Source: Mobula hypostoma (taxonomy: Eukaryota). From it: a DNA stretch of 64,000 nucleotides. The stretch lies in NCBI RefSeq assembly GCF_963921235.1, contig NC_086108.1:25172001-25236000 (forward strand), read 5' to 3'. The notes beneath the pieces were generated by a model that was not told the DNA's origin, did not search any database, and saw only the letters and a program-made list of their open reading frames with translations. Below, in pieces: positions 13,270 through 64,000 of the stretch; position 1 is the stretch's first letter; every line of letters starts with the position of its first letter. Both the position numbers and the translations under genes were made by a program.

Positions 13270-13640
13270 ACAACACATACAAAATGCTGGAGGAACTCAG
13301 CAGATCAGCCAGCGTCTATGGAAATGAATAAACAGTCTATATTTCAGGTCAAAACCCTTCCTCAGGACTGGAAAAGAAGGTGGAAGATGCCAGAATAAGA
13401 AGGTGTGGGAGGAGGGGAAGAAGGAGAGGCTAGAGGATGATAGGTGAAGCTGGATGGGTGGGGGAGGTGGAGGGGGGAAGGGGGAAGAGGTAAGAAGCTA
13501 AGAGATGATAATTTGAAAAGGCAAAATGCTGAAGAACAAAGAGCCTGATAGGAGAGAAGAGTGGACATGGGAGAAAGGGAAGGAGGATGGGACCCAAGGG
13601 AAAGTGACAGGTAGGTGAGGAGAAGAGGTAAATTATCCAT
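13270..13640 (-). mobile_element. Older Penelope-like pLTR/3' fragment
   Basis: Homologous to 56496-56760; minus strand CAGTC-CTGAGGA-AGG..CCT-GAAATATA-GACTG hammerhead variant at ~13333-13370. Confidence 0.7.
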
Positions 13641-20239: not shown

Positions 20240-21284
20240 ATAAGTGTCATGACCTTGGCTTCAATACCACCTTGTGCAACTGGATCCTCGATTTCCTCAC
20301 TTGCAGACCCCAGTCAGTTCAGATTAATAACAACATCTCCTCCACGATCTCCATCAGCAAAAGGTACACCACAGGGCTGTGTACTTAGCCCCCAGCTCTA
20401 CTGGCTTTATACTTATACATGTGAACCTAAGGACAGCTCCAGTGCCATATTTAAGTTTGCTGATGATGTCACTGTCATTGGCTGAATCAAAAGTGGTATC
20501 AAATCGGTACATAGGAGGGAGACTGAAAATCTGTTCGAATGGTGCACAACAACAACCTTTCACTCAACGTCAGCAAAACCAAAGACTACAGGAGGAAGAA
20601 ACCAGAGGTCGATTAGACAGTCCCCATTAGGAGATCAGAGGTAGAAAGGGTCAATAACTTTGAATTCTTTGCTGTTAAAATTTCCAAAGATTTGTTCTGG
20701 GACTAGTGTGCAATTGCCATTGCAAAGATGGCACAGCAGTGCCTTTTTTCTTACAAGTTTGTGCCACGTCATCTGAAACTTTGACAAAATTCTATAGATG
20801 CACAGAGGAGAGTATCCGACTGGTTGTAAAATGGCCTGGTATGGAAACACCAACGTCCACGAATGGAAAAGCCTCCAAAAATTGATGGATGCAGCCCAGT
20901 CCATCACAGGCAAAGCCCTCCCAACCATTCAGCACATCTATAAGAAGCTTGGTCCCAAGAAAGCAACACGCATCATCAAGGACCCCACCGTACAGGCCGT
21001 GCTCTCTTCTCAGTGCAGCCATTGGGAAGGAGGTACAGAAGCCTTAGGTCCCACAGCACCAGGTTCAGGAATAATTATTACTCTTCAATGTTATACTCCT
21101 GAACCGGCGTGGATATCTTCACTCACCTCAACACTGGTGAGTGAAGATAACCACATTAATACAGACTACCTTTCAAAGATTCTGCAGCTCGTATCCTCAG
21201 TTTTATATATTTATTGTATTTGCACAATTTGTCTTCTTCTGCACATCGGTTGTTTATCAGTCTTTGTGTGGCTTTTCATTGATT
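20240..21284 (+). mobile_element. Rex1/Babar LINE (RT to 3' UTR), split by CR1 copy B; its 3' UTR resumes at 24326-24440
   Basis: [13 protein letters not shown] and IFKFADD motifs, WYGNT, Rex-type 3' UTR continuing after the CR1 insertion. Confidence 0.82.
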
Positions 21285-24200
21285 ACATAGAAACATAGAA
21301 ACATAGAAAATAAGTGCAGGAGTAGGCCATTCGGCCCTTTGAGCCTGCACCGCCATTTATTATGATCATGGCTGATCATCCAACTCAGAACCCAGCCTTC
21401 CCTCCATACCCCCTGACCCCTGTAGCCACAAGGGCCATATCTAACTCCCTCTTAAACATAGCCAATGAACTGGCCTCAACAGTTCGCTGTGGCAGAGAAT
21501 TCCACAGATTCACCACTCTCTGTGTGAAGAAGTTTTTCCTAATCTTGGTCCTAAAAGGCTTCCCCTCTATCCTCAAACTGTGACCCCTCGTTCTGGACCT
21601 CCCCAACATCGGGAATAATCTTCCCGCATCTAGCCTGTCCAATCCCTTTAGGATCTTATACGTTTCAATCAGATCCCCCCTCAATCTTCTAAATTCCAAC
21701 GAGTACAAGCCCAGTTCATCCAGTCTTTCTTCATATGAAAGACCTGCCATCCCAGGAATCAATCTGGTGAACCTTCTTTGTACTCCCTCTATGGCAAAGA
21801 TGTCTTTCCTCAGATTAGGGGACCAAAACTGCACACAATACTCCAGGTGTGGTCTCACCAAGGCCTTGTACAACTGCAGTAGTACCTCCCTGCTACTGTA
21901 CTCGAATCCTCTCGCTATAAATGCCAGCATACCATTCGCCTTTTTCACTGCCTGCTGTACCTGCATGCCCACTTTCAATGACTGGTGTATAATGACACCC
22001 AGGTCTCGTTGCACCTCCCCTTTTCCTAATCGGCCACCATTCAGATAATAATCTGTTTTCCTATTTTTGCCACCAAAGTGGATAACTTCACATTTATCCA
22101 CATTAAATTGCATCTGCCATGAGTTTGCCCACTCACCCAACCTATCCAAGTCACCCTGCATCCTCTTAGCATCCTCCTCACTGCTAACACTGCCACCCAG
22201 CTTCGTGTCATCCGCAAACTTGGAGATGCTGCATTTAATTCCCTCATCCAAGTCATTAATATATATTGTAAACAACTGGGGTCCCAGCACTGAGCCTTGC
22301 GGTACCCCACTAGTCACCGCCTGCCATTCTGAAAAGGTCCCATTTATTCCCACTCTTTGCTTCCTGTCTGCTAACCAATCTCCACCCACACCAATATCTT
22401 ACCCCCAATACCGTGTGCTTTAAGTTTGCACACTAATCTCCTGTGTGGGACCTTGTCAAAAGCCTTTTGAAAATCCAAATATACCACATCCACTGGTTCT
22501 CCCCTATCCACTCTACTAGTTACATCCTCAAAAAATTCTATGAGATTCGTCAGACATGATTTTCCTTTCACAAATCCATGCTGACTTTGTCCGATCATTT
22601 CACCGCTTTCCAAATGTGCTGTTATCACATCCTTGATAACTGACTCCAGCAGTTTCCCCACCACCAACGTTAGGCTAACCGGCCTATAATTCCCCGGTTT
22701 CTCTCTCCCTCCTTTTTTAAAAAGTGGGGTTACATTAGCCACCCTCCAATCCTCAGGAACTAGTCCAGAATCTAACGAGTTTTGAAAAATTATCACTAAT
22801 GCATCCACTATTTCTTGGGCTACCTCCTTAAGCACTCTAGGATGCAGACCATCTGGCCCTGGGGATTTATCTGCCTTCAATCCCTTCAATTTACCTAACA
22901 CCACTTCCCTACTAACATGTATTTCACTCAGTTCCTCCATCTCACTGGACCCTCTGTCCCTTACTATTTCTGGAAGATTATTTATGTCCTCCTTAGTGAA
23001 GACAGAACCAAAGTAATTATTCAATTGGTCTGCCATGTCCTTGCTCCCCATAATCAATTCACCTGATTCTGTCTGCAGGGGACCTACATTTGTCTTTACC
23101 AGTCTTTTCCTTTTTACATATCTATAAAAGCTTTTACAGTCCGTTTTTATGTTCTCTGCCAGTTTTCTCTTATAATCTTTTTTCCCCTTCCTAATTAAGC
23201 CCTTTGTCCTCCTCTGCTGAACTCTGAATTTCTCCCAGTCCTCAGGTGAGCCACTTTCTCTGGCTAATTTGTATGCTACTTCTTTGGAATTAATACTATC
23301 CCTAATTTCTCTTGTCAGCCACGGGTGCACTACCTTCCTTGATTTATTCTTTTGCCAAACTGGGATGAACAATTGTTGTAGTTCATCCACGCAACCTTTA
23401 AATGCTTGCCATTGCATATCCACCGTCAATCCTTTAAGTGTCATTTGCCAGTCTATCTTAGCTAATTCACGTCTCATTCCTTCAAAGTTATCCCTCTTTA
23501 AGTTCGGAACCTTTGTTTCTGAATTAACTATGTCACTCTCCATGTTAATGAAGAATTCCACCATATTATGGTCACTCTTACCCAAGCGGCCTCTCACGAC
23601 AAGATCGCTAATTAACCCTTCCTCATTGCTCAAAACCCAGTCCAGAATAGCCTGCTCTCTAGTTGGTTCCTCGACATGTTGTTTCAAAAAACCATCCCGC
23701 ATACATTCCAAGAAATCCTCTTCCTCAGCACCTTTACCAATTTGGTTCACCCAGTCTACATGTAGATTGAAGTCACCCATTATAACTGCTGTTCCTTTAT
23801 TGCACACATTTCTAATTTCCTGTTTAATACCATCTCCGACCTCACTACTACTGTTAGGTGGCCTGTACACAACTCCCACCAGCGTCTTCTGCCCCTTAGT
23901 GTTACGCAGCTCTACCCATATTGATTCCACATCTTCCCGGCTTATGTCCTTCCTTTCTATTGCGTTAATCTCTTCTTTAACCAGCAACACCACCCCACCT
24001 CCCCTTCCTTCATGTCTATCCCTCCTGAATATTGAATATCCCTGAACGTTGAGCTCCCATCCCTGGTCACCCTGGAGCCATGTCTCTGTGATCCCAACTA
24101 TATCATAATCATTAATAACAATCTGCACTTTCAATTCATCCACCTTATTACGAATGCTCCTTGCATTGACACATAAAGCCTTCAGGCGCTCTTTTACAAC

Positions 24201-32370: not shown

Positions 32371-33185
32371 AGCAATAAAAATAGATCTTTGATAAGCGAG
32401 CTGTCGTGTATTCCTTTAGAGAAATGCACGCACTGGATTAGTTATAAAAACCATTGCAATAAATTCATCCAATTTCAATATGTTAAATGCTTTGGAGTCA
32501 TGTTATGTAAACACTTAGAAACAGTCATTCACGGGAAAGAGCCAATATATGCACACAGTTGGAGATGTCTTACCTTGTTCAATGCCAGACAAATGTGTGA
32601 AAAAAGGAACATTTTACCGCAATTTGAACAGTATGACAAAGATTTTGAATGTGTTTAAATGTAAGTCAGGTATATTTATCCTGATGGATGGTTTAATTGA
32701 AGTTCTACTATTTTGATCCTTTTAATAAGAAAGGGGGCAATTTTAAATTTAAATGGATATCTGTTTTGAGGAAACATTGGCTGCTGGTTCTAGGATTGCT
32801 ATTGTGGAGGGTTTTTGTTAGCCTGAACTGTTAGGGTCTCACAGAAAATCAGATTCAAAAAATTTTGCTGCTGGATGCCTGTTCAACTTTGAGAGATACT
32901 TCTGCACAGTCATGCACTTAGCTTTATGAAGAAGACAAGAATATAACCAAATTTAAAACCATCCTATCCCAATTTGGACCCGGTTTGACAATTAAGACCA
33001 TTGTAAATGTCTACATAATTAGACGTCAACTGCTGCCAGATAAGCAGATTTTCCAGACTACTGAATGTTATTCATATTCCCTCAATAGATTTTCTATTTA
33101 CTTTTAGTTAATGAATGATAATTAACCAGTGAAACACTTAATGGGAGCAATAGGAAGTAGGATATGTTCAAAGGCAGTGTGGGAA

Positions 33186-33411
33186 TGTGGTAAACCATAT
33201 ATATGTTGTAACTGGGTTACCTGTCTGGACACGCCCCCCTGCTGACTGCCCCGTGGCTCCTCCCACAGAGTCCTGTATAAAGGTGTTTGCCTTGCCCCTC
33301 CCCCTCAGTTCGGGGGCAGACACTCACCATGGAGGTCGTATTGTACAGAGAATAAAAGCCTTTCGGTATTTTACCTAACCTCAGTCTCTTGGAGTTATTG
33401 AAGGTGCTTCA
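33186..33411 (+). repeat. 5' LTR (226 bp)
   Basis: TGTGGTAAACC...GGTGCTTCA; TATAAA at ~33276, AATAAA at 33351. Confidence 0.95.
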
Positions 33412-33437
33412 ATTTTATTCGCTGTACATTTTAAAGC

Positions 33438-34240
33438 ATGGAACACACATTGAGACCCGACAAATTAGACCTCGATCCGCAAACACCTGAAGCTGGAAAC
33501 GCTTTCAAACTCTGGCTGGCCTGCTTCGAAGCATACCTAGATGAGATTAAAGTGACCGACCCCGTAGTGATGTGTAGAGTTCTACTCTCCAGGGTCAGTC
33601 CACGGGTTTATTCGCTGATCAGAGACCAGCCGAGCTACGATGGCGCGATGAGCGCACTCAAAGGACAATACCTGCGGCCGATAAACAGCGTCTATGCTCG
33701 GCACCGCTTAGCGACATGGCAACAACGGTCCGGGGAATCAAGTGCTGAGTTCGTCCGAGCCCTACAGACACTCGTGCGGGCCTGCAATTGCCAGGAGCTG
33801 ACGGCGGCGCAGCATGCAGAACTCCTAGTGAGAGACGCCTTCGTCACGGGGACCAGGTCAGTGAATGTGCGCCAGTGGCTGTTGGAAAAAGCCAATCTTA
33901 CCTTAAGTTCGGTGATCAAGCTGGCCGACATGCTAGAGGCCGCTCTGCATAACTCTGAGGCTCTCCAGGCATGCGATCCCCCGATGGCCTCGTGGGCGCC
34001 GCAGACCCTGCAACCCGCCAGCGAATTGACCTCAGCTGTCGCTAGTCGCAAGTCCCTGTAACCCACCAGTGAATCAACCTCGGCTGCCGCCAGTCACAAA
34101 TCCGCGAAGTGCTACTTCTGGGGACTGGAGAAGCAGCCCTGGAAAATGCTGCCCGGCCCGAGAGGCTGCCTGCTCCAGCTGCGGAAAGAAGGACCTCTTC
34201 GCAAAGGTCTGTAGGTCCAGGCTGCGAGCGGGATCGTGCA
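33438..34240 (+). pseudogene. gag: gag (frameshifted near 34060)
   Basis: ORF 33438-34061 with QQRSGESSAEFVRALQTLVRACNC and VRDAFVTG; continues in another frame with the degenerate knuckle CPAREAACSSCGKKDLFAKVC. Confidence 0.88.
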
Positions 34241-34499
34241 GCGCCACGTGTGAAGCATGGGGGTCGCCATCTTGCCTGCCGCCATCTTCCCTGCACGCCG
34301 CCACCACGTGCGAGACAGGGGGGCTGCCATCTTTCCTGCACGCTGCCACCACGTGCGAGACATGGGGGCGGCCATCTTGGTCGGTGCCACCTCCCACTGC
34401 CTACGACAGACGGGTGCTCACGGGGTACCCCACCACATCGGACCAAGACAGCGACCTAACCCTCGCTTCCGTGACCCTCGACCAAAGCGCTCCCCACCA

Positions 34500-37409
34500 G
34501 CTTGCAAGGTCAATGATGGACATCCTGGTGGAGGGGTGCAGGACAAGCTGCCTGTTTGACACAGGCAGCATGGAGAGTTTTATCCACCCGGCCACGGTGT
34601 AGCATTGTGGACTCATGATACGTCCGGTGAGTCAGAGGGTCACCATGGCTTCCGGGTCGCATACAACAGACATCTGGGGGGTTGTGTAGCGAAACTAGTG
34701 GTGCAGGACACAGAATATCAAGACTTTACGTTACTGGTCTTGCCTCAACTGTGTACCCCTGTGCTGTTGGGGCTAGACTTCCAGAGCCACCTGAAAAGCA
34801 TGACAATGAAGTATGATGGACCCCTCCCACCAATTACTGCCGTAAATCCCCAGTTTTGTAGGGATACGTCACATACCCCGCGACTGACCAAACACACACA
34901 CTGACCCGCATATCCCACCCAACACCATGCCAACAGCCACACTACCGACACCACTTGCGGCCTCTCCACCCTCAGGATCCCTCCCCCACCGCTGTTCGCC
35001 AACCTGACCCCCGACTGTAAACCTGTGGCAACTAGAAGCAGGAGGTACAGCGCGGGGGACAGAGCTTTCATAAAGTAGGAGGTGCAGCGGCTGCTCAGGG
35101 AGGTGGTCATTGAGGCAAGCACAAGTCCTTGGAGGGCGCAGGTGGTGGTTGTTCGGAATGGAGAGAAGAATAGGATGGTCGTGGACTATAGCCAGACCAT
35201 CAATAGGTTCACGCAGCTCGACACGTACCCTCTACCCCGCATCGTGGATATGGTCAATCAGATAGCACAGTACAAGGTGTACTCGACCATCGACCTAAAA
35301 TCTGCTTACCATCAGTTCCCCATCCACCAGGAGGACAGCCCTTACACTGCCTTCGAAGCGGACGGCAGGCTTTATCAATTCCTGCATGTCTCCTTCGGTG
35401 TCACGAATGGTGTATCTGTCTTCCAGAGGGCAATGGACCGGTTGGTGGACCAGTGCCAACTGAAGGCCACGTTCCCATATCTGGATAACATCACCATCTG
35501 CAGTCACGACCGGCAGGATCACAACAACAACCTCCAAAAATTTCTCCAAGCGGCCAAAGCTTTCAGTCTCACCTATAACAAGGACAAGTGTGTGTTCAGA
35601 ACCACCCGACTTGCTATCCTTGGGTGTGTCATGGAGAATGGAGTCATTGGCCCTGACCCCGACCGTATGCGCCTCCTGTTGGAACTCCTTCCCAACACGC
35701 TCAGAGCCCTCAAAAGGTGCCTGGGCTTCTTTTCATATTATGCCCAATGGGTCTCTAACTACGCAGACAAGGCCCGCCCCCTGGTCGTCCACCACATTCC
35801 CCCTCTCAGCCGAGGCCCACGCGGCCTTCAACCGCAATTAAAAGGGGACATTGCCAAAGCAGCAATGCATGCGGTGGATGAAGCCATTCCCTTCCAAGTA
35901 GAGAGTGACGCCTCCGACTTCGTGCTGGCTGCTACCCTCAACCAGGCGGGAAGACCGGTGGCGTTCTTCTCCCGTACTCTTCCTGAACTTCGGTACTCCG
36001 CAGTGGAGAAAGAGGCCCAGGCCATAGTGGAAGCTATTAGGCACTGGAGGCACTATCTCACCGGCAAAAGGTTCACCCTGCTAACTGACCAGCACTCAGT
36101 CGCATTCATGTTTAATAACCAACAGCAGGGTAAAATCAAAAACCATTAAAATTCTGAGGTGGAGAATCGAACTCTCCACCTACAACTATGACATCATGTA
36201 CAGGCCTGGAAAGCTCAACAAGTCCTCTGATGGCTTATCCCGGGGAACATGCGCCAGCGAGCAGATCAATCGGCTATATGCCCTACATGTAGATCTTTGC
36301 CACCCGGGGGTCACCCGGCTTTTCCACTTTGTGAAAGCCCAGAACCTGCCTTACTCCCTTGAGGAGATCAGGATGATGACCAGGGACTGCCAAGTCTGCG
36401 CAAAGTGCAAACCGCACTTCTACCAACTCAAAAAGGCACAACTCAGCGAGGCCACCCACCCCTTTGAGCGACTGAGTGTTGACATTAAGGGCCCCCTTCC
36501 GTCCACCGACCACAATGTGTACTTTCTTAATGTTATCAACGAGTACTCGCGGTTCCCCTTCGCCATCCCCTGCCCCGACACCACTACCACGTCAGTTATA
36601 AAAGCCCTGCGCAAGCTCTTCACTCTGTTCGGATACCCATGCTATATCCACAATGACAGAGGGTCCTCGTTTATGAGTGATGAGCTGCACCAATATCTAC
36701 TGGCTAGGGGAATTGCAACCAGTAGGACCACGAACTATAATCCCTGGGGGAATGGACAGGTGGAGAAGGAGAATACCACGGTGTGGAAAGCCACACTCTT
36801 AGCCCTCAGGTCAAAGGGACTGTCAGTCTCTCGCTGGTAGGAGGTCCTTCCCGAGGCACTCCACTCCATCCGCTCCCTGTTATGCACAGCCATCAATGCC
36901 ACCCCTCATGAGCGGCTCTTTTCTTTTCCCAGAAAGTCAACCACTGGGACCACCCTACCAACTTGGCTGATGTCCCCGGGGCCAGTGCTGCTCTGGAAAC
37001 ATGCGAGGAGCAATAAATACTCCCCGATGGTCGAGAAGGTTCACTTCATGCAAACCCCCAGTATGCCTACGTGGTTTTACCTGATGGGCGGGAGGACACG
37101 GTCTTCATCCACGACCTGGCGCCCGCAGGAGAACCGGGCCCCTACCCTGAACACTTCGTGGTGACTATTGACCCCGTACCCACCAATGTATGTACCCACG
37201 AGACACCGTGCACTCCAAGCCCTACACAGACACCACACGACACTCCCATACCAGGTGCGACACACACGCAGGAGGGATTAACAATGCCTAACGTGCTGGC
37301 ACCTCAAGTCAGACTGGAGCCAGCACAACCGCTGTCACCGATACAATCACCACTGGTGCTATGTAGATCACAGCGACGGACTCGACTGCCTGATAGACTT
37401 GACCTGTAA
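34500..37409 (+). pseudogene. pol: pol: protease, RT, RNase H, integrase (multiple stops and frameshifts)
   Basis: LFDTGS protease; SPW, DY..IN, IDLKSAYHQ and YLDN RT motifs; ESDASD and EKEAQA RNase H; H-H-C-C plus VDIKGP / HNDRG / VEKEN DDE integrase; no chromodomain seen. Confidence 0.93.
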
Positions 37410-37477
37410 ATATACTTGTTGTAAATATTGTCAGTCACTTCACCCCGCTGAACTCTTTTTGAAAAAGGAAGGGTGAA

Positions 37478-37705
37478 TGTGGTAAACCATATATATGTTG
37501 TAACTGGGTTAACTATCAGGACACACCCCTCTGCTGACTGCCCCTGTGGCTCCTCCCACAGATACCTGTATAAATGTGTTTCGCCTTGGCCCTCCCCCTC
37601 AGTCCAGGAGCAGACACTCACCATGGAGGTCGTATTGTACAGTGAATAAAAGCCTTTCGGTATTTTACCTAACCTCAGTCTTTTGGAGTTATTGAAGGTG
37701 CTTCA
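37478..37705 (+). repeat. 3' LTR (228 bp)
   Basis: Direct repeat of 33186-33411 with roughly 16 differences counted by eye. Confidence 0.95.
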
Positions 37706-40105: not shown

Positions 40106-40675
40106 CCCATTTTATTTCACCAACTGGTATCCTCAAAGTACCAATAACTTGTTCTTTTCGCCAGATGCCGACTCACTTGAGAAATATTCACTGCAATTTT
40201 TACTTTCATTTTGTTTTTAGTAATGTTCTTTATTATTTCTTTTCTGTGATCCAACAGGTGCTTAACGAGTCAAGCCTGCATGACAAACGAAAGTCCAGAC
40301 AAAATGCACATTAAAATTTGAGCTGTCTGAATCATGAACTCATCTGCAGCTGCATATTGAAAGACCTATCCTCAATGATTAATTCCATGACCCTGAAGAT
40401 CTTCAGTTAACAAACATACATCAGTCTCAGATTTCAGATTACCAAATGATCAAGCATCAGCATTGATATACAGAAAAGTCCATTCAAAAACTCTCTTCTT
40501 GTCAAAAATATTTCCTAATACCACCAAAAAACCTGGCTCTGGTTTTTGAGCTGTTCTCCTTACTCCCAAAACAGTGGAGATAGTCTTCTTCTCTCTAGTT
40601 CATCAATTATCTGACTTTGATAAAATTTTTGATCAAATCAGCTTTAAAAATTCTAAATCCCAGGGAATATATCCA

Positions 40676-40865
40676 AACAACAGGAATTCTGCAGATGCTG
40701 GAAATTCAAGCAACACACATCAAAGTTGCTGGTGAACGCAGCAGGCCAGGCAGCATCTATAGGAAGAGGCGCAGTCGACGTTTCAGGCCTCTCGGCCTGA
40801 AACGTCGACTGCGCCTCTTCCTATAGATGCTGCCTGGCCTGCTGCGTTCACCAGCAACTTTGATG
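40676..40865. mobile_element. Palindromic miniature Penelope-like insertion
   Basis: Perfect 72-bp inverted arms 40718-40789 and 40794-40865 with a TCTC loop; 13-bp direct repeat GAATATATCCAAA at 40665-40677 and 40865-40877. Confidence 0.92.
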
Positions 40866-43800
40866 AATATATCCAAAGTTTGTTTAATGTCTACTTGCAA
40901 TGTAACTCTTGGAGTACTGGTTTCCATCTAGTAAATCTATCCCACACTTCCTTCAAGGCAAATAGATCCTGCCGAAGGTGAGAAGAGTAATACTGTTCAC
41001 AGCACTCCAGGTGCACTTGCACAGTATTCCCTCTAGCCCTTGAATTGCTATCCTACAGATATAGCGGCCACCATTCCAGAAGCCTTTTTGATTATCTTCT
41101 TTGATATTTTGATGACTGATGTACAGAAACCCAAAAGTCACTCTGTATCTCTACTGGTTTTAGATTTCTATCCCAAAGAAAGCAATCTTTTCTATCCTTT
41201 TGATGTCTGATTTTTTGAGGTCATTGCTACAAATGTTAATCAATGTTATAGTAAATTTGCTATACTAGGTCAGTAACTTAACTGCTCTGCCGTCCAATTA
41301 ATTATTAATTTCCTTTTGGAGAATGTCCTCAGCTGAGCTCTATGTTGAGATTTTGCAATTTACTGTTCATTTGAAATGTTGACAAAGCATATTCTTTAAA
41401 GTCATAATGACAATTAGTGGGATGGGTGCTTCCCATCCACTGGAGTCCATGCTTTGTGATCAGCCTCTTCCAAAGGGAACAGCAAATAAGTTAACTGCAA
41501 GAACATCCATGCTGAACAACCCTCTGAGAGATTTCTGCTGCTTCAGCCTTTAAGTGATTACAGCTGAGTGCGAGAGCCAATTTCTAATTGTTGTTTTGAT
41601 TTATCCCAGTGGAGAACATCTTTGTCTGGCAACTTATTATGAAGGCTTTAACAAGTAGTGGCAGATTTCTTTGCAAATAAATTATTTGATATTATATGGA
41701 TAATTGAAAACAAAGTGTTACTGGAAAGGAAAATGAAAGTAATTTCAACACTGCTTCCATTTACAAAAAATAATGCTATCCAGCCTTTGTTCTGTAAAAT
41801 CATGTGTGTTCTAGTATCAGGTTGTGATGTATGTAGTAGTAAAACTTTTCTGATAAGTTCATGCCTTTCCCCTTCCTCGATAAAAACTGTACTACAGAAT
41901 CACTATAAGTTGCTTTTTTGCAGCCAAAGGCAAACCAGGAGGAGATCAGTCTCAGCTTTGAACTGGAGAATTGTTGTTTGTAACCCAGTGTGGCATTAAT
42001 GAAGAGAGCAAGCTTGGAGATGTCCAAACAATTTTAAGTTTCAGGAGTCAATGATGTGTTTCTTGCAAGTCCCAGACATCACTCAGATGCTTCATTTCAC
42101 CAGCATGGTCCCTTGCATTATAACATCCAGACATAAACAAATTAGAAAGAACAAGAGGACATGTATTCACATTATTTCTGTTTAGCAGTAAGTTGTTAGG
42201 CAGTCCTTCAGCTACAGAGCAAAGGCTCTGGAATATATAGCCAGCTAGTATGTTCCGTATTGACTGCAGGACATCACAAGAGTTGGACTGGTACCTGACT
42301 GGAGGGGTAGATGGAGACTGCATCTTGCAGAAATTAAGTACCTTTACGGTTTCATCTGTGTGATCTCACAGGGCAATCTCAGTCACATGAGGAATTCAGA
42401 GAGGTATTTTCTGGTATGTTTTCTTTTCCTGTTAGTTCTGGGTTCTATGCTACTCCTAGGAATTACATTGCTGCGGGTGATGTAGGATCGCAAGGAGCAG
42501 TGCAACGAAAGGAAGATTCTCATGTGCAGGAAGCAGCACAGAAAGAACGACGTCTACTTTATTGCTAGTCTTTCTTTGCTGATTACGGAAAAGGTGCATG
42601 TTGAAAATTGCTTTTTCAAAGTCAAATCATGGTCTTGGTGAAATACGTTCTGTAAAACTAATAACTTATTCCATACTATTTTTCAGATTTAAGGACTCTC
42701 ATTTAACATAGAATACCTTGAAAGCTGTAAAACCCCAATTTTGAATTATTTGCTAATGAGAATTAGTGTTTGGATAGATTCTATCAGACAGTGACTATAG
42801 AACAAATTTCTGTCTCTTCATTAAAGAAGCAGAAATTTGCTACTATTTGTGTAGAATTTGTTGTCAATAACTTTCTAATGGATTTGCAACACATAATAAA
42901 TGCAGGGGATAGATAAAGATTCTATTTCACTCTCTGTTTGATAAATTAATTACTTTATTTACTGTGGTTGTGAAATAGCTTTTGCTAATAATCCAAGTGC
43001 AAACAGACACTTGGTTTCTGTTTCTAAATAGACATTTTTGCAGCTCCAAGTAATGTTATTACTTTAAAATAAACATATCCACTCCTCATTCCTTCAACAA
43101 TATTTTTCTAATTGATAAATATTGCTAAGATAACCTTTTCACCAATAATAGATCTGCCTCACTCATCATCCACTAAAGTAGTGCACCAACAATTGATCTG
43201 ATCTACTTACCGTCAGCAATAAGATGCTCAGGAACATGAAGAATAACTTTAACAGACAAAGGACAGGTCACATGGGAGCCATAAACCAACCCAATTACAC
43301 AACCTACCACACTTATCAGTGTAAGGGTGGTTTTGTTGATGGGGCTGCGGGGAGAACCTGTAAACCAACAGACAAAGAAAAAAACATGTTAGTTCTTGAT
43401 ATAAAGAAAACTTTCATTATTTTCTAATACGAGAAAAACAAGGAATATATTTTTCTCTGGCGCACTAATGGTGGCAAGCAATGGAAATTTTCCATACATG
43501 AGTATGTGAAAGAATGTGACAGTGAAATTCATACATAAAGCTCTGAATCAATCTGTTTTCTTATCTACAGTCTTTACTAGTTTGCAGGAACTTACCACTA
43601 AGAACAACACTTTGGAAAAGCTACTAAAAGCTCTTTCAGGTGCTTTCTTGTGACCTTCCTGGGAGCTGATCATCTCACCTCCTCCCCAGACTGAAATAGG
43701 ATGATCAAGTAACCAGCTGGTAAATTGAATTGTGTTCTCAAATTTTCCACTGAATCCAAGTATTCAATTATTGTCCAATGGAAGTAAAACATATCCAACT

Positions 43801-49139: not shown

Positions 49140-50780
49140 TTCCCTTGCAGTTTATGAAGGTCAATGTGCCAAAAGCTTTCTTTACAACCCTATCTACCTG
49201 TGACGTCATTTTCAAGAAATGATGGATCTGTATTCCCAGATCTGTCTATTTTACCATGCTGTTCAGTGCTCTACTGCTCACCGTGTAAATCCTGCTCTGG
49301 TTGGTCCTCCCAAAGTTCAACACCTCATGCTTGTCTGCATTAAGTTCCATCTGCTATTTTGCAGCACATTTTTTCCAGCTGGTCCAGATTCTGCTGCAAA
49401 CCATGATAGCCTTCTTCACTGTCCACTACACCCTCAATCTTGGTGTCAGTCATAAATTTGCTGATCCAGTTTACCACATTATCATCCGGCTCATTGATAT
49501 AGATAACAAATGACAACTGACCAGCCCAAATCCCTGTGAAAAACCACTAGTCACAGGCCTCCAGTTAGAGGGGCAACATCTACAGCCACTCTCTGGCTTC
49601 TTGCACAAAGCCAATATCTAATCCAATATGCATCTTGAATGCCAAGTGACTGAATCTTTTTGACCAACCTCCCATGCTGGACCTTAACAAAGACCTTGCT
49701 AAAGTCCATGTAGACAACATCCACTACCATGCCTCCAACAACTGTCCTGGTAACTTGAATGAAAAACTCTATAAGATGGGTCAGACATAACCTACTACGC
49801 ACGAAGGAATTCTAAATCAGTACCTGTTTATCCAAATACGAATATATCTGATCCTTTAGAATAGCTTCCACTAACTTTTCTCTACTAATCCTTCACTGGC
49901 CTATACTTCCCTGGCTTATTCTTAGAGATTTCCTAAAACAATGTAATGACATTAGCTATCTTCCAAACCTCTGCACCTCACCCACGGCTAAGGATGTTTT
50001 AACTATTTCTGCTAGGTTCCCTAGAATTTCTGCATTAGCCTCCTATAGGGTTCGGGAGAGCATATTGTCCTGAGGAATTATCTACCCTAATTTACCTCAA
50101 GACAGCAAACACCTCCTCCTCTGTAATCTGTATCAGGGCCATGACCTTACTGCTCCATTACCTCACATCTGTAGGTTTGGAAGATAGCTAATGTTGTTAC
50201 ATTGTTTAAGGAAGTCTCCCAAATACATACAAATGGCAAAACAATCCATTTAAGGTTTCCCTCATCTTTTTCCTCTCCATTCGTAAATTACCACTCTGAT
50301 CTTCCAGAGGACCAGTGTTGTTCCTTGCTTTCTTTTTGCTCTTAATGTATCTGTAGATACCCTCTGGGTTCTTCCTCACCTTGTTTACTAGAGCAAGCTC
50401 ATGTCTTCTTTTAGCCCTCCTGATTTCTTTCCTAAGTGTTCTCCAGCATTCCTTTTAATCCATAAGTACCTCATTTGTTCGTACTGCCTATACCTGCAAT
50501 GCACTTCCTTTTTCTTAACCAGGGCCTCAATATCTCTCAAAAAACAAGGTTCCTCAATACTGCTATCCTTGCTTTTTATTCTGATAGGAACATACAAGCA
50601 CTATACTCTCAAAATGTCACTTATGAAGGCCTCCCACTTACCAAGTACACCTTTGCCAGAAAACAACCTGTCCCAGTCCATGACTGCCTGATCTTTCCTG
50701 ATACCATCAAAAGTGGTCTTTCTCCATTTTAGGATCTCAAACTGAGGTCTAGACCTATCCTTTTCCATTATTACCTTGTA
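49140..50780 (-). mobile_element. Old CR1 ORF2 (RT region); its endonuclease N-terminus lies at 55468-55990
   Basis: CLTHLIEFF..VDVVYMDFSKVFVKV; SQVDRVVKKAFG; KVIMEKDRSRP. Confidence 0.82.
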
Positions 50781-51096: not shown

Positions 51097-52033
51097 ATAA
51101 GTGTGAGGGCAGTTTGCTGTTCTCGGTGTCGGATGTGGGAGGCCCTGGAGTCTCCAAGCCTCCCGGACGTCTGCATCTGCGCCAAGTGCATTGAGATGCA
51201 GCTCCTAAGGGACCGTGTTACGGAACTGGAGCTGCAGCTCGATGACCTTCGTCTGGTCAGGGAGAGTGAGGAGGTGATAGAGAGGAGTTGCAGGCAGGTG
51301 GTCACGCCGGGGCCACGGGAGGCAGACAAGTGGGTCACGGTTAGGAGGCGGAAGGGGAAAAGTCAAGTGATAAGGAGTACCCCGGTGGCTGTGCCCCTTA
51401 ACAACAGGTACTCCTGTTTGAGTACTGTTGGGGGGGGACAGCTTACCCGGGGGAAGCGACAGTGGCCGTGCCTCCGGCACAGAGTCTGGCCCTGTAGCTC
51501 AGAAGGGTAGGGCAAGGAAGAGGAGGGCAGTTGTGATAGGGGACTCGATAGTAAGGGGGTCAGATAGGCGATTCTGTGGACGCAGTCCAGAGACCCGGAT
51601 GGTAGTTTGCCTCCCTGGCGCCAGGGTCCGGGATATTTCTGATCGTGTCCAAGATATCCTGAAGTGGGAGGGTGAGGAGCCAGAGGTCGTGGTACATATA
51701 GGTACCAATGACATAGGTAGGAAAAGGGATGAGGTCCTGAAAGGGGAATATAGGGAACTAGGAAGGGAGTTGAGAAAAAGGACCGCAAAGGTAGTAATCT
51801 CGGGATTACTGCCTGTGCCACGCGACAGTGAGAGTAGGAATGCGATGAGGTGGAGGATAAATGTGTGGCTGAGGGATTGGAGCAGGGGGCAGGGATTCAA
51901 GTTTTTGGATCATTGGGACCTCTTTTGGCGCAGGCGTGACCTGTACAAAAAGGACGGGTTACACTTGAATCCGAGGGGGACCAATATCCTGGCAGGGAGA
52001 TTAGCGGGGGCTACTGAGGTGACTTTAAACTAG
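51097..52033 (+). pseudogene. CR1 ORF1: zinc finger/coiled coil plus SGNH esterase
   Basis: CSRCRMWE...CAKC, heptad LLRDRVTELELQLDDL, then GDSIVRG / HIGTNDI / DGLHLN; frameshift in the G-run at 51430-51437; start codon apparently ATA. Confidence 0.9.
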
Positions 52034-52099: not shown

Positions 52100-55058
52100 A
52101 TGGGAACCAGTGCAGAGAGACAGAGGGGTGTAAAGTGAGGGTAGAAGCAAAAAGTACTAAGGAGAAAAGTAAAAGTGGCGGGCCGACAAATCCAGGGCAG
52201 CATTAAAAAGGGCCACTTTTCAACATAATTGTATAAGGGCTAAGAGAGTTGTAAAAGAGTGCCTGAAGGCTTTATGTGTCAATGCAAGGAGCATTCGTAA
52301 TAAGGTGGATGAATTGAAAGTGCAGATTGTTATTAATGATTATGATATAGTTGGGATCACAGAGACATGGCTCCAGGGTGACCAGGGATGGGAGCTCAAC
52401 GTTCAGGGATAGTCAATATTCAGGAGGGATAGACATGAAGGAAGGGGAGGTGGGGTGGCGTTGCTGGTTAAAGAAGAGATTAACGCAATAGAAAGGAAGG
52501 ACATATAAGCCGGGAAGATGTGGAATCGATATGGGTAGAGCTGCGTAACACTAAGGGGCAGAAGACGCTGGTGGGAGTTGTGTACAGGCCACCTAACAGT
52601 AGTAGTGAGGTCGGAGATGGTACTAAACAGGAAATTAGAAATGTGTGCAATAAAGGAACAGCAGTTATAATGGGTGACTTCAATCTACATGTAGATTGGG
52701 TGAACCAAATTGGTAAAGGTGCTGAGGAAGAGGATTTCTTGGAATGTATGCGGGATAGTTTTTTGAACCAACATGTTGAGGAACCAACTAGACAGCAGGC
52801 TATTCTGGACTGGGTTTTGAGCAATGAGGAAGGGTTAATTAGCGATCTTGTCGTGAGAGGCCCCTTGGGTAAGAGTGACCATGATATGGTGGAATTCTTC
52901 ATTAAGATGGAGAGTGACATAGTTAATTCAGAAACAAAGGTTCTGAACTTAAAGAGGGGTAACTTTAAAGGTATGAGACGTGAATTAGCTAAGATAGACT
53001 GGCAAATGACACTTAAAGGATTGACGGTGGATATGCAATGGCAAGCATTTAAAGGCTGCATGGATGAACTACAACAATTGTTCATCCCAGTTTGGCAAAA
53101 GAATAAATCAAGGAAGGTAGTGCACCCGTGGCTGACAAGAGAAATTAGGGATAGTATCAATTCCAAAGAAGAAGCATACAAATTAGCCAGAGAAAGTGGC
53201 TCACCTGAGGACTGGGAGAAATTCAGAGTTCAGCACAGGAGGACAAAGGGCTTAATTAGGAAGGGGAAAAAAGATTATGAGAGAAAACTGGCAGGGAACA
53301 TAAAAACGGACTGTAAAAGCTTTTATAGATATGTAAAAAGGAAAAGACTGGTAAGGACAAATGTAGGTCCCCTGCAGACAGAAACAGGTGAATTGATTAT
53401 GGGGAGCAAGGACATGGCAGACCAATTGAATAATTACTTTGGTTCTGTCTTCACTAAGGAGGACATAAATAATCTTCCAGAAATAGTAGGGGACAGAGGG
53501 TCCAGTGAGATGGAGGAACTGAGCGAAATACATGTTAGTAGGGAAGTGGTGTTAGGTAAATTGAACGGATTGAAGGCAGATAAATCCCCAGGGCCCTAGA
53601 GTGCTTAAGGAAGTAGCCCAAGAAATAGTGGATGCATTAGTGATAATTTTTCAAAACTCGTTAGATTCTGGACTAGTTCCTGAGGATTGGAGGGTGGCTA
53701 ATGTAACTCCACTTTTTAAAAAAGGAGGGAGAGAGAAACCGGGGAATTATAGACCGGTTAGCCTAACGTCGGTGGTGGGGAAACTGCTGGAGTCAGTTAT
53801 CAAGGATGTGATAACAGCACATTTGGAAAGCGGTGAAATGATCGGACAAAGTCAGCATGGATTTGTGAAAGGAAAATCATGTCTGACAAATCTCAGAGAA
53901 TTTTTTGAGGATGTAACTAGTAGAGTGGATAGGGCAGAACCAGTGGATGTGGTATATTTGGGTTTTCAAAAGGCTTTTGACAAGGTCCCACACAGGAGAT
54001 TAGTGTGCAAACTTAAAGCACACGGTATTGGGGGTAAGGTATTGGTGTGGGTGGAGAATTGGTTAGCAGACAGGAAGCAAAGAGTGGGAATAAACGGGAG
54101 CTTTTCAGAATGGCAGGCGGTGACTAGTGGGGTACCGCAAGGCTCAGTGCTGGGACCCCAGTTGTTTACAATATATATTAATGACTTGGATGAGGGAATT
54201 AAATTCAGCATCTCCAAGTTTGCGGATGACACGAAGCTGGGTGGCAGTGTTAGCTGTGAGGAGGATGCTAAGAGGATGCAGGGTGACTTGGATAGGTTGG
54301 GTGAGTGGGCAAATTCATAGCAGATGCAATTTAATGTGGATAAATGTGGAGTTATCCACTTTGGTGGCAAAAATAGGAAAACAGATTATTATCTGAATGG
54401 TGGCCGATTAGGAAAAGGGGAGGTGCAACGAGACCTGGGTGTCATTATACACCAGTCATTGAAAGTGGGCATGCAGGTACAGCAGGCGGTGAAAAAGGCG
54501 AATGGTATGCTGGCATTTATAGCGAGAGGATTCGAGTACAGGAGCAGGGAGGTACTACTGCAGTTGTACAAGGCCTTGGTGAAACCACACCTGGAGTATT
54601 GTGTGCAGTTTTGGTCCCCTAATCTGAGGAAAGACATCCTTGCCATAGAGGGAGTACAAAGAAGGTTCACCAGATTGATTCCTGGGATGGCAGGACTTTC
54701 ATATGAAGAAAGACTGGATGAACTGGGCTTGTACTCATTGGAATTTAGAAGATTGAGGGGGGATCTGATTGAAACGTATAAGATCCTAAAGGGATTGGAC
54801 AGGCTAGATGCAGGAAGATTGTTCCCGATGTTGGGGAAGTCCAGAACGAGGGGTCACAGTTTGAGGATAGAGGGGAAGCCTTTTAGGACCGAGATTAGGA
54901 AAAACTTCTTCACACAGAGAGTGGTGAATCTGTGGAATTCTCTGCCACAGGAAACAGTTGAGGCCAGTTCATTGGCTATATTTAAGAGGGAGTTAGATAT
55001 GGCCCTTGTGGCTACGGGGGTCAGGGGGTATGGAGGGAAGGCTGGGGCGAGGTTCTGA
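52100..55058 (+). pseudogene. CR1 ORF2 (APE endonuclease plus RT), disrupted
   Basis: TAG at ~52410, indel at ~52505, 14-nt deletion at ~53596 relative to copies A/B, TAG at 54318-54320. Confidence 0.93.
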
Positions 55059-55156
55059 GTTGGATGATCAGCCATGATCATAATAAATGGCGGTGCAGGC
55101 TCGAAGGGCCAAATGGCCTACTCCTGCACCTATTTTCTATGTTTCTATGTTTCTAT

Positions 55157-55465
55157 GAAAGACCGCACCAACATGGGCATTCAACCAATGTGCAAAAAAC
55201 AATAAACTGTGTAAATACAAAAATAAGTAAATAAGCCACAAATATTGAGAATATGAGATGAAGAGTCCTTGAAAATGGGTCCATAGGTTGATAAAACATT
55301 TCAAAGATAGGATAAATGAAATTGAGTGATGTTATCCCCTTTGGTTCAAGAACCTGATGGTTGAGAGGTAATAACTGTTCCTGCACTTAGTGGTGTGAGC
55401 CCTGAGGCTCCTGTACCTTTATCCTGATGGCAGCAGTGAGAAGAGAGCATGGCTTGGGTGAATAT
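55157..55465 (-). mobile_element. Rex1/Babar 3' fragment
   Basis: HPSHALFSLLPSG on the minus strand; homologous to 5580-5890. Confidence 0.75.
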
Positions 55466-55990: not shown

Positions 55991-56523
55991 CTGTACAACA
56001 CTTTTCATCTGAGGAGGTGCGTGGAATTAATGGAGAAGTGTGTCAATGTAAGAACAAGTTAAACCAAGCAAAGAGGGGGATGGACTACTGGAACCTCTCT
56101 TTGAGGAAAGAGCAGTGGCCCCACAGGCTGTCTTGTGATGGATATGTCAAGGCACAGGCCATCATTCCCTCTAGGTTTTTTTTTACAGCTGTATGGACCA
56201 ACCATTGCTCTGGGCCGAGAATTTTTACACGGCCCGAAAACTGCACAACGCTTTGAATTTTTATTGTAATATGCATACCATGAACATTTGGAATGAAAAT
56301 TGAAAAATCACATACTTTTAATTTTACTTATTAATTAAAGGATATAATGAAATACAATACAGCAAAGAAAATCTTTCACATTTCATAAACTTTTTCTCAT
56401 GTCTTTATTACAAATCCATTGTCTAAAAACTGTCCAGATTAATATTAGCATCCAGATGAAAGAATTATCTTAATCCTCATTAGATGATCAAAATGGCCAG
56501 GCAGCATCTGTAGGAAGAGGTAC

Positions 56524-56559
56524 AGTCGACGTTTCAGGCTGAGACCCTTCGTCAGGACT
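56524..56559 (-). ncRNA. Minimal type I hammerhead ribozyme motif
   Basis: AGTC-CTGACGA-AGG(GTCTCAG)CCT-GAAA-CGTC-GACT: intact core, GUC triplet, stem III reduced to the palindrome ACGT. Confidence 0.8.
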
Positions 56560-56853
56560 AACTGAAGGAAGAGTGAGTAAGGGATTTGAAAGTTGGAGGG
56601 GGAGGGGGAGATCCAAAATGATAGGAGAAGACAGGAGGGGGAGGGATAGAGCCGAGAGCTGGACAGGTGATAGGCAAAAGGGGATACGAGAGGATCATGG
56701 GACAGGAGGTCCGGGAAGAAAGACAAGGGGGGGGGTGACCCAGAGGATGGGCAAGAGGTATATTCAGAGGGACAGAGGGAGAAAAAGGAGAGTGAGAGAA
56801 AGAATGTGTGCATAAAAATGAGTAACAGATGGGGTACGAGGGGGAGGTGGGGC

Positions 56854-57315
56854 CTAGCGGAAGTTAGAGAAGTCAATGTTCATGCCATCAGGTTGGAGGC
56901 TACCCAGACGGAATATAAGGTGTTGTTCCTCCAACCTGAGTGTGGCTTCATCTTTACAGTAGAGGAGGCCGTGGATAGACATGTCAGAATGGGAATGGGA
57001 TGTGGAATTAAAATGTGTGGCCACTGGGAGATCCTGCTTTCTCTGGTGGACAGAGCGTAGATATTCAGCAAAGCGGTCTCCCAGTCTGCGTCGGGTCTCG
57101 CCAATATATAAAAGGCCACATTGGGAGCACCGGACGCAATATATCACCCCAGTCGACTCACAGGTGAAGTGATGCCTCACCTGGAAGGACTGTTTGGGGC
57201 CCTGAATGGTGGTAAGGGAGGAAGTGTAAGGGCATGTGTAGCACTTGTTCTGCTTACACGGATAAGTACCAGGAGGGAGATCAGTGGGGAGAGATGCGGG
57301 GGGACGAATGGACAA
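56854..57315 (-). pseudogene. GIY-YIG endonuclease domain of the Penelope-like element
   Basis: VIY...YIGET...RF.E and terminal E...I..L.SLQPDGMN motifs. Confidence 0.9.
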
Positions 57316-59424
57316 GGGAGTTGTGTAGGGAGCGATCCCTGCGGAATGCAGAAGCGGGAGGAGGGAAAGATGTGCTTACTGGTGGGATCCCGTTGGAGGT
57401 GGCGGAAGTTACGGAGAATAATATGTTGGACCCGGAGGCTGGTGGGGTGGTAGGTGAGGACCAGGGGAACCCTATTCCTAGTGGGGTGGTGGGAGGATGG
57501 AGTGAGAGCAGATGTACGTGAAATGGGGGAGATGTGTTTAAGAGCAGAGTTGACAGTGGAGGATGGGAAGCCCCTTTCTTTAAAAAAGGAAGACATCTCC
57601 CTCGTCCTAGAATGAAAAGCCTCATCCTGAGAGCAGATGCGGCGGAGACGGAGGAATTGCGAGAAGGGAATGGCGTTTTTGCAAGAGACAGGGTGAGAAG
57701 AGGAATAACTAAGACTGAATCCATGCTTGCAGTCAACACCAGAAGCTTGAAATGTTCCAATGATACCAACAAAAATTGACAGTACTTCAAATACTTTGTT
57801 TCTGAGCACATAGTTCCACATATCATTGAGCATCTTAATTGAACCAGTCTTAACTTTCTCAAAAATAACGAGTTTGAAACCACAGTATTGCTGCTATATT
57901 TTTGAGGTGAATCTTTCATTGTAATTCTTAATAGTAGCTGAGTATTTTTTTTAATCAGTCGTACAAGGTTCTCTTTTCCAAATTCAAAATTGGTTGCGTT
58001 TGCAACAGTAACAGGGTCTAAAGCTTGTTGTTCTCTTCGATGATTATCAGGAAATCTATTACTGAAGTGATTACACACACGTTGAATGAGTCAAATAATA
58101 GGTACTGCATTGACGTCAGAACTTATAGATGCAAGCAGATCTTTCAGTTTGTCACTCCAAAAAATGGTATCGCCAAGATAGTGACCATAATCTGTTAGTT
58201 TTTGTTTTTGCGTTCTGCAGTGCTTCAATTGTATTCAAACAGCTTTTCCGAACGAATTTACAAACAGATGTAGATCTTCTAAAACATCACCAAGGACAGT
58301 TAATGCTACTTGATTATGTGGATTGGTCAAAATCTTCAGGCAGTAATTGCTGATTAGATCATTACATTCATTAAGAATGAACTACTGACTTCCATTCTAT
58401 GTTTATTGTTACAATTTGTAACAGAGTTGTGAGTAGAAACAGTAACAATGTGAGTATGTTGATGGTCTAAAATTTTTCAAAGTAAAGGTTACGGTATGTC
58501 TATTATTTAGAAATTTTACATATTATATTAATTAACACATTAATTACAGGGTATTTCATAATTATATTGACATAAATTTCAAAATTATATTAGAATTGTT
58601 TCAAAACTATATTAGCATTACATAAAAGAAAATTCAAGCTGGACAGCAACAAAGACTGTGCGTGGGAGCATTTTAGTTACTGCACAGCTGCGCACCACTG
58701 CAGCTTTGAGGAAACAGAGGATCAGATGAAAATGCCGAGTGTGAACTGGTTGGAATAGGAAAACAGAAGCTGTTGAAGTTGAGGATAATGACATAAGATG
58801 GAAGTGTAAATAAATCGATAAAGAAGACAAATAAGGCAAGGAAGGAAAGTCAGCTGAAATGTTGAAAGTATTGTTGTAATTGAATTCATGCCAGAGGAAA
58901 TGTTATCATGTGAGAGGTACGATGAAAAAGATTGGACTTCAGAGTTTATTGAGAAGCATAAATTAGAGGAGGATAGGTGAGCCTAAACTCAGAAAGAGAA
59001 CTTGATGAATAAAGATTTTGAAATTTCCTAAGGATCAAGAGAAAGGATGGCAGTGGATATAGATCAGTGGCTGAAGAAGAAGATGTGTATTGATTTTAAA
59101 TGAGAAGCGAGAGGACTGGTACAAAGTGAGATACTAAATGGAGAAGATGTGGTAGGAATATTGTAACAGACCAAGCAACTGTTGGGCAATTAGGGTCAGG
59201 CTACCAAAATAGTCTGGGAATAAATAATGGTGGAAGGTACAACCAGACTAGGAGGAGGAGCAAGACAGGACTGGCTATCATTTATCAGTCAGGTTTTCAT
59301 CCAATAGCAAGAATGGTGCAATTTCCATAACAATTCATGGGGTTGGCTTTTATTCACAAACACGTGGGTAGATCAGTCCACTTGAAACAAGGATAAATAT
59401 TCAAACAGACTATTATGAAGCATT

Positions 59425-59770: not shown

Positions 59771-60870
59771 CACAAAGCAACACTGTTCCTAATAGTCCAG
59801 GTACCATTTACAACCCAGCTTCTCTTCATCTCTCTTACTGGGCATTTTTGTGAATCCCATTTTGGAAATTCAACATATGGTCTTCTTGGCAACCAGAGGT
59901 CACTGTTTTGCTTTTCCTATAAGATAGAGGCTGGGAATACTTTAAATTTTCTGTGACATTTAATGTAATTAATACCCAGTCACTGACATCCATGAAAGTG
60001 ATACATTATCTAGCTTTACTTCAGAAAGTTTCCACAGTGGGTTTTTGAAAGCAGACTCACATCTGCACTCATTCACTGTACAGCTGAGGGTAGTGCTTGA
60101 ACAAGGCATTTAGTATGATTACAAACCTCAATAAAATGTGACTGAATATCAGCCTGGTTGTCAGATGCTGTTCGTTTTCAGGCTGAACAAATTTCAAAAG
60201 ATAGAGACATTGACATATTCTGGGTTGTTCTCATTTCTTTACTTCAAACAATAATACTTCCTTCAAAACTGTCAGACATAAGCAATTTACTTCCTTCCCT
60301 AAGCACAGCGCAGCACCAATAATCCACCACTGGACACATCTGCAATTCGAAGTTATATGAGAACCACAAATAAAATCCATTATGGGCATATCAATTTGAA
60401 AATAATTACCATTCTGTTATTTATATTTATAATTTTCTGAGTTAATATTAAAGCTGAAAGGGAGTCATTCCTAATACTACGATCCAAAACACATTATCAG
60501 TAGAAACATTACAATTCCATTTTTTCAGCAAGCGTTCAAGATTATTGATTTTGTCATAAAACTACTTTAAGGCCCATTTCTCCACATTCATTTTATTGCT
60601 GTCATGTTGACTAGCTCCATAATATTAGCCGTAGACTAGAGATCCAGTTTGCCAGCAGCTGAAGTGCAATAAATATGCCACATCCGATCACTCAAAGCAT
60701 AACAAGCTCAAACAAATTCGTTTGTACAAGAATTAATACAACTAAAAGTAATGCTACGGATTAAGTAGAACAGGGTTTATTATTGTTTACAACTTATTTA
60801 TCCTGGAAGTTTTCCTGGAAATTCAAAAAGCTCCTATAAAAAGTTTACGTGATAATAAGTCTCCACATAA

Positions 60871-63800: not shown

Positions 63801-63944
63801 CCCACCGCCCAGGCCACCCATCATCAGAGATCCCCACCGCCCAGGCCTTTCATCATCAGAGATCCCCACCACCCAGGCCATCCATCATCAGAGATCCCCA
63901 CCCCCCAGGCCATCCATCATCAGAGATCTCCACCACCCAGGCCA
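60871..63944. repeat. 32-bp minisatellite, ~96 units (CATCATCAGAGATCCCCACCGCCCAGGCCATC), derived from Rex1/Babar coding sequence
   Basis: 32-nt periodicity; runs seamlessly into Rex sequence HALFSLLPSGRRY at 63945-64000. Confidence 0.97.
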
Positions 63945-64000
63945 TGCTCTGTTCTCACTGCTGCCATCAGGGAGAAGGTACTAGAGTCTCAGGGGTCGCA

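Follow-up and report, generated by a model that had tools for sequence, protein, structure and literature searches.

A young palindromic insertion of a Penelope-like element terminus in Mobula hypostoma and its possible routes of formation

Inverted insertions of Penelope-like elements (PLEs) typically comprise an inverted, 5′-truncated copy, a tail on one side only and a target-site duplication (TSD), the layout given in the insertion schemes of PMC3846280 and PMC8557442. PMC3846280 also records 5′-end palindromes, 18 and 38 bp long, and PMC4209133 mentions hammerhead motifs on opposite strands 100–700 bp apart; where PMC8557442 touches on how tandem and inverted PLE insertions are generated, it calls the process undefined. 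In vitro, the Poseidon protein PAc of Anolis carolinensis cuts and extends both strands and is a predicted dimer, and the main text of the same study (PMC11167929) describes two reverse transcription (RT) starts that bound the tail, one of them in an AC-rich stem-loop, with no need for ribozyme cleavage. The subject here is a stretch of 64,000 nucleotides from Mobula hypostoma (GCF_963921235.1, contig NC_086108.1, positions 25,172,001 to 25,236,000, forward strand), referred to throughout as the window, which carries at 40665–40877 a PLE-derived insertion built around a perfect palindrome. An earlier note on this locus, made from the letters alone, placed it among the known inverted partial pseudo-long terminal repeats (pLTRs), and the layouts of PMC3846280 and PMC8557442 bear this out.

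The palindrome, its target site and its empty alleles

The palindrome is a real, young insertion. Its two arms, 40718–40789 and 40794–40865, are complementary at 72/72 positions around a TCTC loop (40790–40793), just as the earlier note had described, and they form the sole perfect inverted repeat in the window with arms longer than 14 bp and a loop of at most 10 nt, the runner-up having 14-bp arms. RNA folding of the stretch gives a z-score of −23.8, a fold matched by 0 of 200 shuffles. Elsewhere in the window, 14-bp arms in perfect inverted repeat enclose an 8-nt loop at 21114–21149. A 13-bp direct repeat, 40665–40677 and 40865–40877, flanks the insertion; the last 2 nt of the left copy could equally be the first 2 nt of the element, and the first base of the right copy is common to the right arm. 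The insert thus amounts to 187 bp plus a true duplication of the 13-mer.

Positions in the element terminus are numbered as e, counted from 40676. On the left lies the 3′ end of the element, e1–114, as cDNA, consisting of a 42-nt tail (e1–42, the extreme 3′ end; 40676–40717, minus strand), which starts identically in a sister copy at 4909, and the left palindrome arm (e43–114, plus-strand cDNA; 40718–40789, minus strand). On the right, in the opposite orientation, lies e118–43, made up of the templated 4-nt spacer (e118–115; 40790–40793, plus strand) and the tail-less right palindrome arm (e114–43; 40794–40865, plus strand). The insertion is therefore asymmetric, with 42 nt of element ahead of the palindrome and a 114-nt arm that includes this tail standing head-to-head with a 76-nt inverted arm. 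The four bases e115–118 are present on the right arm only and the tail on the left arm only; neither arm can be extended across the centre by even 1 nt, and microhomology at the joint is 0 nt on either side. At e95 both arms carry one and the same variant, by which they depart from the sister copy. The outer end of the right arm lies 7–9 nt from the usual tail-less start of the family, in an AC-rich loop of the template RNA (e40–49) for which pairing probabilities of 0.0–0.2 are predicted. The segment e1–42 is regarded as a tail because most copies of the family have their start at e-1/e0 or e34/e36, sites about 35–37 nt apart (among 23 of 890 loose-end rows).

The origin of the insertion from a Penelope-like terminus, proposed in the earlier note, is supported by two matches of the left arm, to a second copy at 4909–5022 (112/114 identical) and to an element end at 56495–56544 (92–93% over 45–50 nt). 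The first belongs to a sister insertion of the same subfamily (4896–5055), which follows the same plan. It has a 13-bp TSD (4896–4908 and 5043–5055), an arm of e1–121 (4909–5029) and a 15-nt inverted piece of e94–80 (5029–5043), a single nucleotide being shared at the joint and another at the right end.

Contigs from 4 of 24 sequencing runs (X1, X5, X9 and X10) were placed on 40261–41310. In organisms B and C (runs X5 and X9), one contig each joins 40664 straight to 40865, so that exactly 200 bp are absent and one copy of the 13-mer is left; the empty site is carried by two of the three other organisms, the third, organism D (X10), having no listed cover there. Empty alleles with a single 13-mer show that the 13-bp repeat claimed earlier is a true duplication and that both strands were cut. 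The X1 contigs, 40261–40695 and 40841–41310, have 0 differences from the window and a depth of about 12, as in the flanks, and X1, the run that matches best, may be the window's source sample. These read-derived contigs contain the two outer junctions and show the arms in opposite orientation, which is therefore no invention of the assembly.

A misassembled centre, for example a collapsed longer inverted insertion or a long-read hairpin artefact, would fit the fact that no contig listed spans 40789–40794, and trouble in assembling such structures is noted in PMC8557442. It is nonetheless very improbable, given that the X1 contigs hold both outer junctions in opposite orientation at a single-copy depth of 12 with 0 differences, that two other organisms confirm the TSD and the empty site, and that similar structures occur elsewhere, namely the sister insertion and at least 14 further joints of the inversion type.

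Divergence of the flanks is 2.0% for organism B and 7.1% for organism C. An insertion as old as the split from B would be expected to show 1.4 mismatches between its arms, with a probability of about 0.24 of none; since the insertion is younger than this 2.0%-divergence split, arms free of mismatches need no special explanation. The description of the locus as an unmutated snapshot of integration accordingly holds in that the product is young, but its lack of mutations is no more than is expected at that age. The product is most likely an inert relic, and nothing points to a function; a cruciform or small-RNA role, as raised in the earlier note, would be hypothetical. No RNA run is listed among the sequencing runs matching the locus, which has no bearing on expression.

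The hammerhead motif and the proposal of two primed cDNAs

A minimal hammerhead core is found at 56555–56528, on the minus strand, which is the sense strand of the element (by a pattern of our own, with 7 matches in the window, 2 of them in this family); Rfam at the gathering score gave 0 matches. By comparison with this core, 40790–40811 (plus strand) holds the 3′ half of the motif, comprising loop II, the 3′ strand of helix II, the GAAA box, the cleavage triplet GTC (40804–40806) and the 3′ strand of helix I. As the earlier note had stated, the palindrome is without the CTGACGA box, so that the half motif by itself can form no ribozyme. With the cleavage triplet assigned by motif only, following the scheme of PMC4209133, cleavage would fall at e101. 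The left arm crosses this position by 13 nt (e114) and the right arm by 17 nt (e118), and whichever pairing register is taken, both end in loop II of helix II, helix II itself being weakly predicted in the monomer (pair probability 0.3). The earlier placing of the turn in helix II is thus right as to the region, the centre lying within helix II and loop II, and wrong as to the paired stem, in which neither arm ends.

A template cleaved by the ribozyme could have set the cDNA ends, a suggestion that the position of the palindrome centre inside the motif invites. On such a template cDNA synthesis would stop at e101, whereas the arms extend to e114 and e118, so ribozyme cleavage is not the source of these ends, and the explanation is largely refuted for this copy and scarcely credible overall. 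Among the 28 ends of the inversion joints listed below, moreover, none (0/28) lies at e99–103, although subfamily divergence may hide some and the cleavage site is assigned by motif; the main text of PMC11167929 reports that cleavage is dispensable and that no RNA reads were found to end there.

What a mechanism has to account for is observed directly: an insertion with its TSD, the extents of the arms, a tail on one side, no microhomology, and both arms continuing past the cleavage site. The reading that we favour, by a modest measure, is a single retrotransposition of a Neptune-type element, in which a cut with a 13-nt stagger would have offered a primer for reverse transcription at each of its ends, the two cDNAs being joined thereafter. 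At the plus-strand end, the cDNA would have started at the tail start, e1–3, and run to e114; at the minus-strand end, it would have started internally at e43–44, in the AC-rich loop just inside the tail, and run to e118. The template RNA for both would have been uncut by the ribozyme, and both cDNAs would have halted early in loop II, within 4 nt of one another. Their ends would then have been united without homology, through end-joining or a polymerase jump between them, and fill-in would have produced the palindrome and the TSD. We infer this order of events and the joining step, with one RNA template or two.

Self-primed snap-back should leave a nested inverted arm and terminal pairing at the turn. 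Here neither arm is nested and microhomology is 0 nt; as a strand that folds back copies only what it holds, and as each arm has bases that the other lacks, simple snap-back fails from either side. Of the integration routes suggested earlier, template switching or end-joining at a staggered cut stands and simple snap-back falls. The two start sites of the family also resemble the two RT starts shown in the main text of PMC11167929.

Several observations weigh against two primed cDNAs. If stops were uniform over 100–300 nt, two independent ends would fall within 4 nt of one another with P of about 3–9%, a coincidence that obliges the reading to assume a shared stop, and fold-back accounts directly for the tiny loop. 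The second start, e43–44, is off the usual tail-less start by the 7–9 nt given above (it is e80 in the sister insertion), and primer-template pairing at e43 is weak, with a score of 4.0 against 5.0 at e32, and not the best site. The inverted piece of the sister insertion is nested in its first arm and is compatible with fold-back, the central joint 40789–40794 of the palindrome is spanned by none of the contigs listed, and the in vitro evidence concerns a Poseidon element, not a Neptune one (PMC11167929, main text).

A hybrid course, which we consider unlikely, would retain priming at both nicks, with the tail-less cDNA e43–e118 folding after an untemplated G had closed a C-GAGA-G mini-hairpin, copying itself and annealing to a short cDNA with the tail, made at the other nick. 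The 4-nt loop and the perfect arms would then arise without coincidence. The minus-strand loop reads GAGA, which is of the GNRA type, and GNRA-type loops form stable DNA mini-hairpins; the e95 variant on both arms also agrees with self-copying, although its sharing fits any single source. On the other side, the element base after GAGA is C, not G, so that an untemplated base is needed, the hairpin must unwind for the second cDNA to anneal, and no paired 3′ end is predicted for a cDNA ending at e118. A self-priming 3′ hairpin was likewise not predicted for cDNAs ending at e118, e121 or e124. Self-priming by a cDNA ending at e114 was considered and rejected, as its predicted fold pairs the end with e69–72 and does not give the observed joint.

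Joints of other copies, the parent family and neighbouring repeats

The 15 best of 225 joints, ranked by support, were examined for other copies of the terminus; 14 are of the inversion type, and one, 40675/40708, was set aside as another type. Contig depth, summed or per joint, is not taken as copy number. Among the 14 listed inversion joints, left ends range over e30–94 and right starts fall at e74–94 or from e118 onwards; in 5/14, as in the sister insertion, one arm extends to e118 or further, reaching helix II. No listed joint (0/14) has both ends in helix II. The intervening letters are not known in 10/14, so true turns may lie elsewhere owing to subfamily divergence, and the finding of 0/28 ends at e95–117 is not taken as evidence. 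These joints turn at many places, and they do not support the fixed turn at the ribozyme stem suggested in the earlier note; a weaker hotspot at helix II, reached by one arm, is a minor possibility.

Offsets of 0–14 nt, seen in 7/14 of the listed joints, are a point in favour of another origin for the palindrome, namely that the single-stranded, tail-bearing cDNA folded back at a point past e118, or that the head-to-head insertion was at first longer, and that a deletion in the unstable palindrome then removed the middle of the product, leaving the centre asymmetric. The sister insertion, turning from e121 to e94, is a geometrically possible fold-back, and long palindromes are prone to central deletions. 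This origin is nevertheless rather improbable: it needs a second event within a young insertion, the centre is without microhomology, a 4-nt spacer would not relieve the instability, and no longer allele occurs among the contig pieces listed. Movement of the 187-bp hairpin as a non-autonomous fold-back element, resembling a miniature inverted-repeat transposable element (MITE) or a short interspersed element (SINE), deserves little credence. Its hairpin shape with a TSD and the recurrence of some listed joints (2–6 contigs, in more than one organism) speak for it. Its ends, however, are not inverted repeats, 42 nt of unpaired element stand between the left TSD copy and the palindrome, the centre 40789 to 40790 is absent from the best 15 of 225 joints, and the sister insertion has a different centre.

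A further reading, tentative and on present evidence doubtful, is that the uncleaved hammerhead region acts as a stop for the element's own reverse transcriptase, with cDNAs tending to end at e118–125 (loop II and the 5′ strand of helix II), and that a dimer which primes on both strands of the target has left its in vivo footprint in this genome as thousands of miniature head-to-head copies. In the window, the longer arm, in its reach into the element, ends at e118 in the palindrome insertion and at e120–121 in the sister insertion. Besides the 5/14 listed joints mentioned above, 8 of 12 listed rows with extra letters (of 226) continue the element to e119–125; both counts are biased towards rows at e118 and beyond, as the reference stops at e118, junction contigs are short and rows were picked by support. 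The chance that one of two ends falls in helix II is 9–24%, and the word AGG, which recurs in the terminus, provides simple microhomology with the e118–125 spot. Were this reading true, the Penelope ribozyme motif would gain a role or a cost that is independent of cleavage, and the origin of inverted pLTRs could be counted from one genome. A single copy settles nothing; the very high copy number of the family and the empty alleles in close relatives ease a genome-wide test. A literature search, incomplete for subscription papers including the 2005–2006 element reviews, found no study in which the junctions of inverted copies are mapped relative to the hammerhead, and passages of PMC12910113 and 10.64898/2026.07.22.740005 contribute nothing further on junctions.

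Two further joints are recorded in their own right. The joint 40760 to 40823 is a spacer-less turn at e85 beside the element's own 6-bp palindrome, present in 6, 5, 1 and 1 contigs in four organisms, and may be a site, outside the ribozyme, at which fold-back recurs. The excluded joint 40675/40708 links the tail start to the tail-less start on opposite strands (4 contigs each in organisms A and B); it represents tail-to-tail neighbours that use both start sites, an arrangement different from that of the palindrome insertion.

The parent family is best represented by a 5′-truncated copy at 56495–57727 (minus strand), which contains the complete minimal hammerhead motif at 56555–56528 and a GIY-YIG endonuclease frame at 56854–57375 with a CX4CX2C linker. 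Its 3′ end starts at e69, well inside both usual start sites, and no convincing TSD of 7 nt or more was found around it. Pfam GIY-YIG scores the frame at E 0.0013 and 19.5 bits, below the curated cut-off of 22.6 and with no match at 0.001; the endonuclease motif (cysteines between GIY and YIG, and CCHH) is present, and the frame is intact save for one histidine to tyrosine change. Relatives with 76–93% identity (11 matches, in stingray and devil-ray records) have RT motifs upstream, and the closest proteins are from Mobula and Hypanus. The linker is found in the window's frame and in 3/4 aligned relatives. The Neptune clade is defined by a CX2-5CxxC linker ahead of the GIY-YIG motif (PMC8557442, in its clade definitions), and on this motif, which is common to Nematis and Naiad too, the parent is putatively a Neptune-type endonuclease-bearing PLE. 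An old diverged fragment of the same family at 13259–13658 holds a decayed hammerhead motif (13365–13340) and is apparently tail-less; a search for a TSD near 13260 gave one 7-nt word and none that is convincing. Ray gene models P0004, P0005, P0008 and P0011, named after host genes, include the coding sequence of the element and are either exonised pieces or annotation errors. A metagenome scan with a 20-nt motif gave 27 loci, 0/27 of which extend as element copies (longest match 33 nt, 88%), and these are treated as chance.

The remaining repeats of the window are of other kinds. Two copies of a long interspersed element (LINE), 15842–17977 and 21285–23419, are 98.8% identical over 2.1 kb and lie 3.3 kb apart in inverted orientation, with a third at 52120–55456; from their motifs we take them to be CR1/L2-like. 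Upstream of the third copy, a 203-codon frame (51422–52033) has a GDS motif, presumably like that of the esterase domain of some LINE ORF1 proteins. A decayed Gypsy-like long terminal repeat (LTR) retrotransposon occupies 33170–37705 (LTRs 33170–33411 and 37464–37705, 91.8%); a tandem array with a period of about 35 bp directly adjoins its end and runs to 38797. At 60745–64000 a 32-bp unit is repeated in tandem about 91 times or more; the array has stop-free frames of 815 and 1037 codons and is probably a satellite that lacks stop codons there. A MITE-like sequence at 49925–50218 has 46-bp inverted repeats (91%) around 202 nt.

Comparison with described systems

Twin-primed, 5′-inverted L1 insertions were reportedly described by Ostertag and Kazazian in 2001. 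In L1 twin priming the inverted part is the adjacent upstream segment of the RNA, the two cDNAs are essentially non-overlapping and a poly(A) tail is present; here, in contrast, the cDNAs overlap by 72 nt, which gives the palindrome, and there is no poly(A). The two systems are alike in that both ends of the target cut are primed on RNA, the two cDNAs are joined and a TSD is kept (10.1101/2024.12.14.628481, in its account of twin priming).

The minimal hammerheads of metazoan pLTRs treated in PMC4209133 share with this family the conserved boxes, a short helix I, a palindromic minimal helix III suited to a dimer, and a position in the terminal repeat; the palindrome differs in holding only the 3′ half, the full motif lying at 56555–56528. 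The PAc system resembles the locus in its two RT starts bounding the tail, its AC-rich start, an AT-rich target, the cutting and extension of both strands and the dispensability of ribozyme cleavage (PMC11167929). It differs in belonging to another clade and in that its main text is without joined head-to-head products, and the second start here is 7–9 nt off the usual tail-less start of the family.

There is also a close likeness to Pen2a_Av of Adineta vaga (PMC3846280) and to the scheme in PMC8557442, in which an inverted 5′-truncated copy is joined by its 5′ end, the tail is one-sided, a single TSD surrounds the unit and the empty allele holds one TSD copy. The tail measures 30–40 nt in the inverted-pLTR insertions described there and 42 nt here, at one end only in both. 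In contrast to Pen2a_Av, the insertion consists of 114 + 76 nt of terminal repeat alone, with no open reading frame or direct pLTR, and it lies in a ray-like cartilaginous fish, in a family that its linker motif would place with Neptune rather than Penelope/Poseidon. Its geometry separates the models, as two priming events or a later deletion are required and ribozyme cleavage is excluded as the source of the ends. The palindrome insertion is in this sense a minimal example of an already described product, whose geometry argues for priming at both nicks.

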